Part shown: piece after piece, positions 49,601 to 52,366 of the stretch
Layout of the letters: every line of letters begins with the position of its first letter
Position numbering within the stretch: the stretch's first letter is position 1
Origin: Escherichia coli
Lineage (GTDB): Bacteria > Pseudomonadota > Gammaproteobacteria > Enterobacterales > Enterobacteriaceae
Reading direction: 5' to 3' (one strand)
NCBI RefSeq assembly: GCF_024502345.1
Contig: NZ_JALDNN010000001.1
DNA length: 64,000 bases
Made by a program: the position numbers and the translations under genes
The notes under the pieces: generated by a model
The model's database searches: none
The model's input: only the letters and a program-made list of their open reading frames with translations
Told to the model about the DNA's origin: nothing

Positions 49601-49754
49601 TCTCACTCTCGACAAAAGCCACCGCGCGTGTGCCAATCTTTACAGGTGCGGGAAAACGACCTTCACTGATCAGACGATAAATCCAGGCCTTGCCGAAACC
49701 AGTTCGTTTCAAGACTTCTGGTAAACGAATTAAGCTTTGATTTGTTGTATTCAT
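49601..49754 (-). pseudogene. AlpA-family regulator gene, 3'-truncated by IS903-like copy B
   Basis: Hand-read ORF MNTTNQSLIRLPEVLKRTGFGKAWIYRLISEGRFPAPVKIGTRAVAFVESE... with GGAGGAG RBS, running into the IS end. Confidence 0.55.
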
Positions 49755-49920
49755 TTGGCTGTCTCCTCCGCTTCCGTTATGGATATATTAACCACATAAG
49801 TTTCTGTCTATGAAGAGAGTGCTGATAACTGAAATCTTAGATGAGGGAAGAATGAAAGGAAATTCCGGGGAAGAAAAATATTTACGCCCTCCCCTTGACA
49901 ATTAACATGATGATTTACAA

Positions 49921-50730
49921 CTAGAAAGAGCCGAGTTCAGAAATCGGTATGTTGAGGAGATGGCTGTTTTTGCTGATAAAGTATTCGAGACTACGGGTTG
50001 TTTCTCCATTCAATGACTTCTCTGCAACAGGCCTGTCTGTATCTTTAATGTGATCTTCTCCTCTGATCTCACTTGTAAAGTCGGGATACAAGACACGAGA
50101 CAGGACCATATTTGAGATTTTTACTTTTTTAAATTTTGCCCAAATCAATAGATCCATCATTGGGATAATATTGTAATCGACAAGTTTTCTTATCTTTGCC
50201 AGTCCAATTTTTTCTGTTTTTACTGGCTCAATTTCATATTCTTTCCTGAGAATGGGTAGCATCGTTTGTAAGGCTGTTATAATTTCTTCATCGCTAGACA
50301 TTCCTAAATCAAATGAAACATACATCTTGCTGCTATTTTGGTTAAGAAAAAAGTCTCTCATAGTTTTTGTTATTGGTTTATTTTTCAACTCTTTTTTGAA
50401 ATCACCATTTTCTTCAAAAAAATCCATGCTAAACATTATTAACTTGTTCTCTAATTTTTTTATATCACCAAAGCTAACCTGAGCAACATGTCTTTGGCCC
50501 TTGCCAAAATGGCCATGATTATTATCTTGTCTGCTTAAAATAGGATTACCTTCAAGGATAGACCTTAAATTTTGATTATCATCTTCCCATCCAAAATTTA
50601 CACTGTCGAAAATCGCTTCTCTAAAGGCAAGCTCGGTATGCAGTTCTTTGATTGTAAGTGATTTTAACTGCTCATAGCTTTCGAGACTAAACCAGATTTT
50701 TAATTCTTCATAAGGGCTTACTACTTTCAT
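49921..50730 (-). CDS. Hypothetical protein (island cargo between integrase and alpA remnant)
   Basis: 269-aa ORF, visibly AT-rich; no recognisable motif. Confidence 0.55.
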   Translation of the reverse strand: MKVVSPYEELKIWFSLESYEQLKSLTIKELHTELAFREAIFDSVNFGWEDDNQNLRSILEGNPILSRQDNNHGHFGKGQRHVAQVSFGDIKKLENKLIMFSMDFFEENGDFKKELKNKPITKTMRDFFLNQNSSKMYVSFDLGMSSDEEIITALQTMLPILRKEYEIEPVKTEKIGLAKIRKLVDYNIIPMMDLLIWAKFKKVKISNMVLSRVLYPDFTSEIRGEDHIKDTDRPVAEKSLNGETTRSLEYFISKNSHLLNIPISELGSF

Positions 50731-50841
50731 TAATCCCTCCTCTGTATTCGAAGCTTGAATGAGTTAACACTGCTTATTTGAATTAATTCTCCCTTAACAA
50801 GGTTGATAAGGGAGAACGATTAATTAACTACTTATTCATAG

Positions 50842-52092
50842 TTAAGTCTTTTTAAAATCAAATGGTGAAACTTGTCGTATTCTAAGGAGGTCAAGGTAAT
50901 CGGCCCACCACTGCAACATAAGCTTTCTCTCATCAAGGTGCTCTGCTTTATGTATGTAGGCAGCACGAACTGAGTTCCGCTCCTGATGGCTCATTTGCCG
51001 TTCAACAGCATCTTTCGACCACAAGCCGGATTCAATCAAGGCACTACAAGCCATAGCCCTGAATCCATGTCCACAGACCTCCACGGTTGTGTCATAGCCC
51101 ATAGACCTCAAAGCCTTGTTTACCGTATTTTCACTCATAGGCTTTCTGAAATCATGGTCGCCAATGAACACAAGTTCATGGTCACCGCTGATCTCTTTAA
51201 TTTCCATCAACACAGCCAATGCCTGACAACTCAAAGGAACAAGGTGTGGAGTTCGCATTTTCGAACCACGGTGCGAATGTTTCACTCCGGGTAATGGCTC
51301 TCGCTCTGCAGGAATAGTCCACATAGCATTCTCTAAATCGATTTCCGACCATCTTGCGAATCTGAGTTCACTGGAACGAATGAAAATGAGCAATGTCAGC
51401 TTTACGGCTAACTTCGTGAGTTTTCTACCCTTGAAACTATCAATTCGTTCTAAAAGTTCTGAGAATCGTTCGAATGGCAAAGCTGGCCTGTGGACTCTTT
51501 TAGCTACCGCAATAGCTCCTGCCATCTCCTGGGCAGGGTTGTAATCTATCAGACCATTCTGGACAGCATATCTCATTACTGCCGTTGTTCTTTGCTGTAA
51601 TCGGGAAGCAACTTCCAGTCGCCCAGAAGCTTCAACAGCTTTGATAGGGGCAAGAAGATCTCTGGTATTAAGTTCGGATATTTTTCTTTTACCAATAGCA
51701 GTAAAGAGACCATCTTCCATGCTTTTTAGAACTCTTTCGCTGTGGGAATTTGACCATTTCCTTTTACAGGCAGTATGCCAGTCTCTCGCAACAGCTTCGA
51801 ATGTCAGGGCTTCGCTTTGCTCAATCTTATCTGCTTTTTTCTTCTCAGAAGGGTCGATACCATCAGATACCAACTTTTTGGCTTCATCTCGCTTCCTGCG
51901 GGCTTCACCAAGAGAGACCATTGGATAAACACCTAATGCTAAAACTTTCTGCTTGCCCCCGAAACGGTATTGGAGTCGCCAGTATTTTGAACCATTGGGG
52001 TTGATCAGCAGGTGCATACCCTGCCCATCTGTGAGTTTGAAAGGTTTGTCGGAGGGCTTGGTAGTCCTAACTTTGATATCAGTGAGTGCCAT
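50842..52092 (-). CDS. Tyrosine-type site-specific integrase (P4-like)
   Basis: 416 aa; N-terminus MALTDIKVRTTKPSDKPFKLTDGQGMHLLINPNGSKYWRLQYRFGGKQKVLALGVYP; C-terminal catalytic region (HGFRAMA...Y); adjacent to tRNA-Leu. Confidence 0.9.
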   Translation of the reverse strand: MALTDIKVRTTKPSDKPFKLTDGQGMHLLINPNGSKYWRLQYRFGGKQKVLALGVYPMVSLGEARRKRDEAKKLVSDGIDPSEKKKADKIEQSEALTFEAVARDWHTACKRKWSNSHSERVLKSMEDGLFTAIGKRKISELNTRDLLAPIKAVEASGRLEVASRLQQRTTAVMRYAVQNGLIDYNPAQEMAGAIAVAKRVHRPALPFERFSELLERIDSFKGRKLTKLAVKLTLLIFIRSSELRFARWSEIDLENAMWTIPAEREPLPGVKHSHRGSKMRTPHLVPLSCQALAVLMEIKEISGDHELVFIGDHDFRKPMSENTVNKALRSMGYDTTVEVCGHGFRAMACSALIESGLWSKDAVERQMSHQERNSVRAAYIHKAEHLDERKLMLQWWADYLDLLRIRQVSPFDFKKT

Positions 52093-52281
52093 CAGTTGAT
52101 ACCTCCGCTGTTGGTATCAAAATCAATCGAACCGAAGATACCACCAGTTATACCATCATTCGTTGGTATATGTGGATAGAAGTAAGTAGACGTGGACAGA
52201 CTAAGAAAAGCCAAAACTCTGCTTAACTTACTGTTTTTGTGGACTAAAGTAGACGTTAGTAGACTTGAAAAAAACTTTTTA

Positions 52282-52366
52282 TGGTGCCGAAGGCCGGACT
52301 CGAACCGGCACGTATTTCTACGGTTGATTTTGAATCAACTGCGTCTACCGATTTCGCCACTTCGGC
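52282..52366 (-). tRNA. leuX: tRNA-Leu (anticodon CAA)
   Basis: 85-nt cloverleaf read on the minus strand (GCCGAAGTGGCGAAATCGGTAGACGCAGTTGATTCAAAATCAACCGTAGAAATACGTGCCGGTTCGAGTCCGGCCTTCGGCACCA), with long variable arm and encoded CCA. Confidence 0.9.

Follow-up and report, generated by a model that had tools for sequence, protein, structure and literature searches.

What kind of mobile element once occupied the leuX gene of this Escherichia coli strain, and how much of it is left? The question is raised by positions 49601-52366 of a 64,000-nt stretch of contig NZ_JALDNN010000001.1 (assembly GCF_024502345.1), referred to here as the window. In this region the tRNA-Leu(CAA) gene leuX is followed by a tyrosine integrase gene (int), a gene encoding a 269-aa protein of the DUF6387 family and an AlpA-like regulator gene (alpA') that ends at a copy of the insertion sequence (IS) IS903B. 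The initial annotation, made from the sequence alone, described a decayed integrase island with a layout common to integrative islands and satellite-like elements. The evidence presented below indicates, with a probability of about 0.9, that the region is an attL-proximal stub, left by an integrative mobilizable element (IME) of approximately 19-21 kb that had integrated in the 3' end of leuX and was cut by IS903B.

The leuX-proximal stub

The 2.8-kb segment 49601-52366 is the front end of the island, and its limits coincide exactly with the IS boundary on one side and the 5' end of leuX on the other (Table 1). leuX, int, the DUF6387 gene and alpA' all lie on the minus strand, and their coordinates agree with those of the initial annotation. 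leuX was called by both ARAGORN and Rfam at the expected place; it is an intact tRNA gene, identical in sequence across six aligned strains, and is the chromosomal anchor of the island (attB/attL). The int gene is co-directional with leuX and begins 189 nt downstream of it. The encoded protein of 416 aa contains the Arm-DNA-bind_3 (PF13356), Phage_int_M (PF22022) and Phage_integrase (PF00589) domains, with E-values of 1e-28 to 9e-20. It is 57.7% identical to the Int protein of phage P4 over the full length, and the catalytic motifs HGFR and RAAYIH are conserved between the two, so that the assignment of a P4-like tyrosine integrase on the same strand as the tRNA is confirmed. Identity to orthologues in other leuX islands is 94-99.8%, or 92-99.8% across the E. 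coli islands and those of the other genera named below. The island as a whole is indeed decayed, as first described, but its integrase gene is not: the open reading frame (ORF) is complete, and the nine nucleotide differences from the int gene of strain ET210 comprise eight synonymous changes and one non-synonymous change. Directly after the int stop codon is a stem-loop (-22.1 kcal/mol; z = -5.1 against shuffles) that was not called by the consensus terminator scan and has a weak U-tract. This predicted hairpin suggests that int may form its own transcription unit.

An 18-nt core sequence, GTTCGAGTCCGGCCTTCG, sits inside the 3' part of leuX, where it overlaps with the attP core of phage P4 (20 nt). 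Exact direct repeats of this core are 20,672 nt apart in E. coli IAI1 and 18,754 nt apart in O55:H7 RM12579. The initial annotation had proposed a search for such a repeat of the leuX 3' end, together with a comparison with other leuX islands; the 18-nt repeat was found in intact relatives, and the window contains a single copy. Searches of the window with 23-, 14- and 18-mers of the leuX 3' end, allowing up to three mismatches, returned the leuX copy alone. Similarly, when the attR regions of IAI1 and O55:H7 were compared with the window by short-word BLAST, attL was the sole match. The spacer between leuX and int contains a tandem arm-type repeat, TGATGGTATAAC/TGGTGGTAT, at 52138-52158, as well as GTCTAC repeats, and probably also holds the int promoter region. 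A tandem TGATGGTAT motif just upstream of int is kept in all six strains. In IAI1 and O55:H7 a second tandem set of TGATGGTAT is located approximately 45 nt before the attR core; a search for this motif found a single set in the window and no distal arm. Because the distal leuX repeat (attR) is missing from the window, unlike in IAI1 and O55:H7, the window copy is called truncated.

The point of truncation lies within alpA'. Aligned to orthologues of 68-71 aa, alpA' keeps 51 of 68 codons and then runs through the residues RLC to a stop codon inside the IS (ORF 49590-49754, 54 codons). The break at 49600/49601 corresponds exactly to the terminal inverted repeat of IS903B copy B, and the earlier description of an AlpA-like gene cut off by an IS903-like element thus holds, with the cut placed after codon 51. 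The 51 retained codons are identical or nearly identical to those of relatives in leuX islands. The winged-helix part of the AlpA' protein is kept and the C-terminal helix (17 aa) is lost, while Int is intact. The full-length AlpA orthologue of ET210 matches a PHROG family annotated as 'excisionase and transcriptional regulator'.

Copy B, 1057 nt long with terminal inverted repeats of 18 nt, matches at 100% identity both a second copy in the window, copy A (32277-33333, inverted), and the annotated IS903B of strain MB06233. Copies A and B are the only IS903B copies in the window, where they form an inverted pair 15.2 kb apart. Copy A sits on a 454-bp deletion within yjiC, and copy B joins alpA' to unrelated DNA. 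IS903, a member of the IS903 group of the IS5 family, gives rise to 9-bp target duplications and to deletions of adjacent DNA, and occurs as an inverted pair at the ends of Tn903. No 9-bp target duplication was detected at either copy when all four flanks were compared directly, swapped and reverse-complemented. The outer flanks of the pair are GGCAATAAC and TCTCACTCT; copy B is bordered by TCTCACTCT on its right and CATCCACCA on its left. Since there is no target duplication, each copy marks a deletion or rearrangement and not a simple insertion; for copy B this would be a deletion or IS-IS recombination. In addition, the alpA'/IS903B junction was found in none of 5,426 complete E. coli genomes, in which all matches begin at the IS boundary (query position 57-59). 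The 100% identity of the IS copies and a junction found nowhere else suggest that the truncation is recent and lineage-specific.

Intact relatives and the DUF6387 gene

The module of int, DUF6387 gene and alpA is accessory, occurring in 25 of the 5,426 complete E. coli genomes, beside leuX each time. It is also present at the same tRNA in Citrobacter, Kosakonia, Buttiauxella, Brenneria and Erwinia. E. coli strains ET210, MB06233, O55:H7 RM12579, W409 and IAI1 share a layout in which leuX is followed by int, the DUF6387 gene, alpA, a small hypothetical gene and several further small genes. The relatives carry a relaxase gene in convergent orientation, encoding a protein of the MobA/VirD2 nuclease type (PF03432), and the gene upstream of it in ET210 resembled NikA weakly, with a score short of the Pfam cutoff. 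Their variable cargo is anti-phage in nature and includes type I restriction-modification (R-M), Kiwa, TIR/caspase genes, a DUF262/DUF3696 pair, Abi, and sce7725/sce7726 with a RES gene. No type IV secretion system genes are annotated in these islands. The rarity of the module and the full islands to which it leads in relatives support the original view of a tRNA-anchored integrative island truncated by IS903B copy B, and speak against a core-genome pseudogene without island structure.

The window locus has the same integration site, attL arm with TGATGGTAT and gene order as the leuX islands of IAI1, O55:H7 RM12579, ET210, W409 and MB06233. It differs from them in stopping at AlpA codon 51, without downstream backbone, relaxase or cargo, and in the loss of attR, which is kept in IAI1 and O55:H7. 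When the relaxase and further backbone proteins of ET210 were used as tblastn queries, the window gave no match. Because the relatives carry a relaxase and have none of the genes by which P4 replicates or hijacks capsids, the element is assigned to the IMEs and not to the satellites; this refines the initial annotation, which had named integrative islands and satellite-like elements together. On these comparisons, the intact family would be an IME of about 19-21 kb with a P4-family integrase, competing with P4-like satellites for leuX. The window copy is an IME remnant, not a functional IME.

leuX is known as E. coli defence hotspot #37, the most occupied hotspot (Hochhauser et al. 2023, PMC10121019; PMC12707154). 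Its occupants are prophages, P4-type satellites or IMEs, and 68% have only integrases, with no recognisable mobile element (PMC10121019, PMC12707154). The window stub is exactly such an integrase-only case, and shows how one arises.

The islands of the relatives are themselves composite. Many of them contain, after alpA, an optional nested cassette of two tyrosine recombinase genes and a large gene annotated as DNA-binding or hypothetical (Table 1). Similar multi-integrase cassettes (GInt / putative transposons) have been described previously (PMC10121019), and the three genes are probably an element nested within the island. In O55:H7 and W409, tandem arrays with second integrase fragments are found at leuX.

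The gene between int and alpA' was regarded in the initial annotation as uncharacterised cargo. Its presence and integrity (49921-50730) were confirmed, and the ORF encodes a full-length DUF6387 protein, but the cargo label did not survive. The gene has four differences from its ET210 counterpart, three of them synonymous, and identity to relatives in leuX islands ranges from 72 to 99.6%. Gene neighbourhoods were compared at 19 loci showing both neighbours, five from E. coli and 14 from other genera. An AlpA gene lies downstream of the DUF6387 gene, in the same direction, at all 19 loci, and the order Int, DUF6387, AlpA is found at 18; cargo of 1-3.6 kb separates the DUF6387 and AlpA genes at four. 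In Pantoea and Erwinia the DUF6387-AlpA pair is accompanied by an Int that is only approximately 37% identical, and the tRNA, where visible, is tRNA-Arg(tct).

The association extends well beyond these genera. A profile search of 1.84 billion representative sequences identified 882 DUF6387 clusters at E <= 1e-3. Among distant representatives with usable contigs, an AlpA/HTH_17 gene is located downstream in five of five, and an arm-type integrase gene (Int 34-45% identical) immediately upstream in four. GC content at the three distant loci measured was 30-46%. At one distant locus (L030 2015-4131) the integrase gene and the AlpA-like gene are separated by two DUF6387 paralogues in tandem. The pair also occurs without an integrase gene upstream, in Superficieibacter, in an E. 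coli remnant on the ileY/ypjA side and on a metagenomic contig that also encodes TraD and pilin; this is the layout of the EARL (Enterobacteriaceae-associated ROD21-like) islands. The E. coli DUF6387 clusters concerned (P0073 and P0085) are in the ileY/ypjA-side island remnant, not in an EARL island. DUF6387 is almost never carried by plasmids (5 of 72,556 records). Because int, DUF6387 and AlpA genes recur in this order both within Enterobacterales and among low-GC relatives far removed from them, the 269-aa gene is a conserved backbone partner of the AlpA gene, not cargo.

Searches with the DUF6387 protein gave no match in NCBIfam or PADLOC, and in PHROGs a match only to a family of unknown function. 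The best hit of a profile search of the PDB had an E-value of 0.054, which is no sequence match. PF19924 was likewise the sole family matched by distant members. AlphaFold2 modelling yielded a pLDDT of 57.8 with 10 sequences, and 74.7 with a pTM of 0.69 with 45 sequences. A putative hairpin after the DUF6387 gene was no better than shuffles.

Neighbouring DNA

The DNA to the left of copy B is a mosaic (Table 1). The segment containing an integrase-core fragment and the 5' part of hsdM is 96.5% identical to cargo of the ET210 leuX island (ET210 locus L001 3082-4984), which is located approximately 15 kb from alpA in that strain. The hsdM fragment consists of the 5' 1,022 nt of the gene, is frameshifted after about 91 codons and is cut at 45148 (region 44128-45254); it has N6_Mtase and PADLOC MTase_I matches. 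Judged by this similarity, the segment is a probable distal relic of the same island. No IS is present at the junction of hsdM' with the autotransporter segment. Within the autotransporter gene, a 9-nt unit (Pro-Asp-Asn) is repeated 12 times in tandem at 47439-47591. The same gene, split by IS3, is cargo of the pheV island of strain C 236-04A, which indicates that it has moved between tRNA islands.

Further to the left, the 133-aa ORF of the low-GC stretch had no Pfam, NCBIfam, PHROG or PADLOC match, and none among the best matches listed in complete E. coli genomes. The adjoining sce7726/sce7725 segment is 99% identical to genes of the W409 leuX region, and is a relic of a further element of a leuX array. 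The RES-domain partner of sce7725/sce7726, present in W409, has been lost in the window. The P4 record places cII in the sce7726 family and labels beta a 'beta family protein', and the PADLOC match in the window is named 'cll'. Thus, sce7726/sce7725 may be the relic of a gop-beta-cII-like anti-phage module. In window 37800-38977 the fim operon is reduced to the final 19 bp of fimH, and an IS1 joins fimH' to the middle of sce7725. Also lost are the distal end of the island array and the greater part of gntP; a gntP deletion of approximately 1.2 kb is common to the window and W409.

Table 1. Positions of the features discussed (numbering of the window, except for the last row, which refers to loci of relatives).
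Feature	Position	Strand	Evidence or remark
leuX, tRNA-Leu(CAA)	52282-52366	-	ARAGORN; Rfam tRNA 59.4 bits
attL core 18-mer GTTCGAGTCCGGCCTTCG	52288-52305	-	Direct repeat bounding the islands of IAI1 and O55:H7 RM12579
attL arm (leuX-int spacer)	52093-52281	-	Conserved across six strains
int, 416 aa, intact	50842-52092	-	Three Pfam domains
Terminator-like stem-loop	50786-50817	-	RNA fold
DUF6387 gene, 269 aa, intact, 34% GC	49921-50730	-	PF19924, E 1.7e-76
alpA' (ORF runs to 49590)	49601-49754	-	Phage_AlpA, E 1.1e-15
IS903B copy B; transposase 48576-49544	48544-49600	+	DDE_Tnp_1 domains
Autotransporter segment	45302-48546		Gene 45318-48506, intact, 1062 aa, AIDA/MisL-type
IS-family integrase-core fragment and hsdM 5' part	43246-45148	+	Match to ET210 island cargo
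Low-GC (~32%) stretch with 133-aa ORF (42534-42935, minus strand)	42141-43245
sce7726 (41089-41991, intact) and sce7725 split by IS3 (39415-40673)	38978-42140	-	NCBIfam
IS1 joining mid-sce7725 to fimH'	38210-38977
IS903B copy A in yjiC	32277-33333	-	Inverted relative to copy B
Nested three-gene cassette	L003 16783-19327; L004 32442-34941; L005 21800-26170; L024 11481-15629

The chromosomal setting is that of the E. coli core genome, in the reverse of the K-12 orientation. The genes ahr, yjgR, lptG, lptF, pepA, holC and valS are located to the right of leuX, and uxuA, uxuB, uxuR, yjiC', iraD and hypT on the left side. The best identity of the right-hand core (52400-64000) to any of the complete E. 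coli genomes is 98.3%, and the lineage, which may be a Shigella or cryptic-clade one or another Escherichia lineage, is therefore not represented among them. The 31-49.6 kb stretch was found in one piece in none of these genomes. An Rfam scan of 48000-53000 detected nothing besides the tRNA, and consensus promoter and terminator scans made no call above shuffled expectation. The idnK-idnDOTR operon is missing between ahr and yjgR (window 53581-53663); it is likewise absent in IAI1, O55:H7 RM12579, W409 and MB06233, and present in ET210. An apparently intact type I R-M system is encoded at 8757-15645 (hsdM 784 aa, low-GC hsdS 424 aa, hsdR 1087 aa). It adjoins yjiA and btsT/cstA and belongs to defence hotspot #36, the 'immigration control region'. 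With this system at hotspot #36 and the island at leuX, hotspots #36 and #37 both fall within the window. The R-M system has two unassigned ORFs beside it, at 5605-6339 and 6565-8481 on the minus strand.

Proposed history and its alternatives

The anatomy of the locus, the place where it is truncated, the lack of attR, of distal arm repeats and of a relaxase in the window, and the structure of intact relatives were observed directly. What Int, AlpA and the relaxase do as catalysts, mobilisation in trans and the succession of IS events are drawn from knowledge of the families. In the history proposed, Int would integrate a circular element at the 18-nt core shared with leuX, with the element supplying the tRNA 3' end, and the tandem arm sites on both arms would guide Int. 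AlpA, as a recombination directionality factor (RDF), would act with Int to excise the element as a circle. The MobA/VirD2-type relaxase and its NikA-like accessory protein would then allow transfer by a co-resident conjugative element, and the variable middle of the intact element carries anti-phage cargo. IS903B, through insertion and adjacent deletion or through IS-IS recombination, would have removed the last 17 alpA codons and everything distal to them, namely the backbone, the relaxase and its origin of transfer (oriT), most of the cargo and attR. IS1 and IS3 events would have further scrambled the remainder and deleted the neighbouring fim operon. With attR gone and the RDF gene truncated, the stub would be unable to excise, and having no relaxase it could not be mobilised. 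It would thus be locked in place, with int and DUF6387 as intact ORFs and with leuX predicted to be still usable as attB.

Several points weigh against this account. The autotransporter gene, between hsdM' and IS903B, is pheV-island cargo elsewhere, and the DNA on the left is not simply the rest of the element. The relaxase and cargo attributed to this copy rest on relatives that are 94-99% identical in the retained 2.8 kb. These relatives are also mosaic, with cargo between int and the DUF6387 gene in some, or the nested cassette, so that the lost part is not exactly reconstructable. To our knowledge, no excision, integration or mobilisation assay has been reported for the leuX-island family, in which roles are assigned by homology.

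Among named families, the EARL islands are the closest. ROD21, ICEKp258.2 and IE3 share with the leuX element a P4-related integrase beside a tRNA gene and an AlpA-family RDF with DUF6387. The unknown gene of about 843 bp beside the RDF in EARL islands is DUF6387 (ICEKp258.2 ORF28, next to the AlpA gene ORF27; PMC10763509, PMC6035254), and the DUF6387 proteins of the EARL branch are 26-34% identical to the window protein. The AlpA-like protein SEN1998 of ROD21 is an excision factor that binds both attachment regions (PMC8844411). In addition, EARL islands are excisable, relaxase-bearing elements of Enterobacterales with defence or virulence cargo, as is the leuX family. Membership of the window element in the EARL family is nevertheless unlikely when the criteria are taken from the published descriptions (PMC6035254, PMC10763509). 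EARL islands occupy an Asn-tRNA gene with the direct repeat of the family, whereas the site here is tRNA-Leu(CAA). Their int and RDF/DUF6387 genes are at opposite att ends, divergent from attP, whereas int, the DUF6387 gene and alpA' are contiguous and co-directional at attL. They encode a MobA/MobL (MOBQ) relaxase, TraD and type IV pilin, all absent from the window, and the relatives have the PF03432 relaxase and NikA-like gene; a scan of the ET210 backbone ORFs recovered this relaxase and its partner, with no TraD or pilin match. The leuX element thus works like an EARL island but fails the published tRNA, layout and relaxase criteria.

The stub could also have been retained as a working unit, in which Int and attL/leuX provide a landing pad in trans that captures or resolves other leuX-targeting elements and DUF6387 benefits the host. 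Intact int and DUF6387 genes with mostly synonymous differences from ET210, an intact attL arm and leuX, and the tandem arrays of O55:H7 and W409 are compatible with this suggestion. The truncation is probably recent, as judged from the identical IS copies and the unique junction, so that intact ORFs need no selection, and the synonymous bias is older than the truncation. Retention for function is accordingly considered unlikely.

Another reading takes the locus as a remnant of the int end of a P4-type phage satellite, dependent on a P2-like helper phage. P4 (NC_001609) and the window element share leuX as the target gene, with overlapping cores (the annotated attP core of P4 is the last 20 nt of leuX), a three-domain Int and tandem arm repeats directly upstream of int. 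The AlpA-like protein of P4 is the Vis excisionase/regulator. Homologues of cII and beta (sce7726/sce7725) are found 8-10 kb away, and hotspot #37 sometimes holds P4-type satellites. P4, however, has the alpha primase, cI, epsilon, sid/psu/delta and cos, with no relaxase and no DUF6387 gene between int and the regulators, and the leuX IME family is the reverse. Every relative with the int-DUF6387-alpA module has the relaxase and NikA-like gene and no annotated alpha, cI, epsilon, psu, delta or sid. The P4 genes alpha, cI/epsilon and sid-psu-delta, and cos, were found neither in the window region nor in the annotations of the five relatives, although no profile search was aimed at alpha, sid or psu. 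In W409, sce7725/sce7726 are located at the far end of the island beside a truncated second integrase gene, and not in the backbone. The satellite origin is thus largely refuted by the relaxase of the relatives and their lack of annotated P4 genes, and is very improbable.

Least credible is a Tn903-like composite transposon or duplicative inversion in place of the truncation of a resident island: two 100% identical, inverted IS903B copies do bracket 15.2 kb in the geometry of Tn903, but simple models of this kind are refuted since no combination of outer, inner, swapped or inverted flanks gives the 9-bp duplication that transposition, inversion by IS-IS recombination or duplicative inversion would leave, the uxuR-uxuB-uxuA genes between the copies have kept their native order and their orientation with respect to both hypT/iraD and leuX/ahr, and copy A simply sits on the yjiC deletion.

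As the stub of an IME, the region is one more IS-eroded island, an ordinary relic at the well-known leuX hotspot, and matters little by itself. It illustrates clearly how an island is immobilised and its surroundings stripped by IS903, IS1 and IS3, here with loss of the fim operon and most of gntP, and explains why many occupants of hotspot #37 appear as integrases with no recognisable mobile element. The sole lead of wider reach at this locus is DUF6387, for which no matching fold and no family of assigned function was found. Tentatively, it may be a third core component of the integration/excision module in islands with P4-type integrases, such as EARL/ROD21/ICEKp258.2 and the elements of the leuX hotspot; in that role it might shape or regulate the excision complex, or help to maintain the excised circle. 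The EARL papers record DUF6387 only as an unknown gene beside the RDF, whereas here it appears as a deeply conserved partner of the integrase/excisionase pair.

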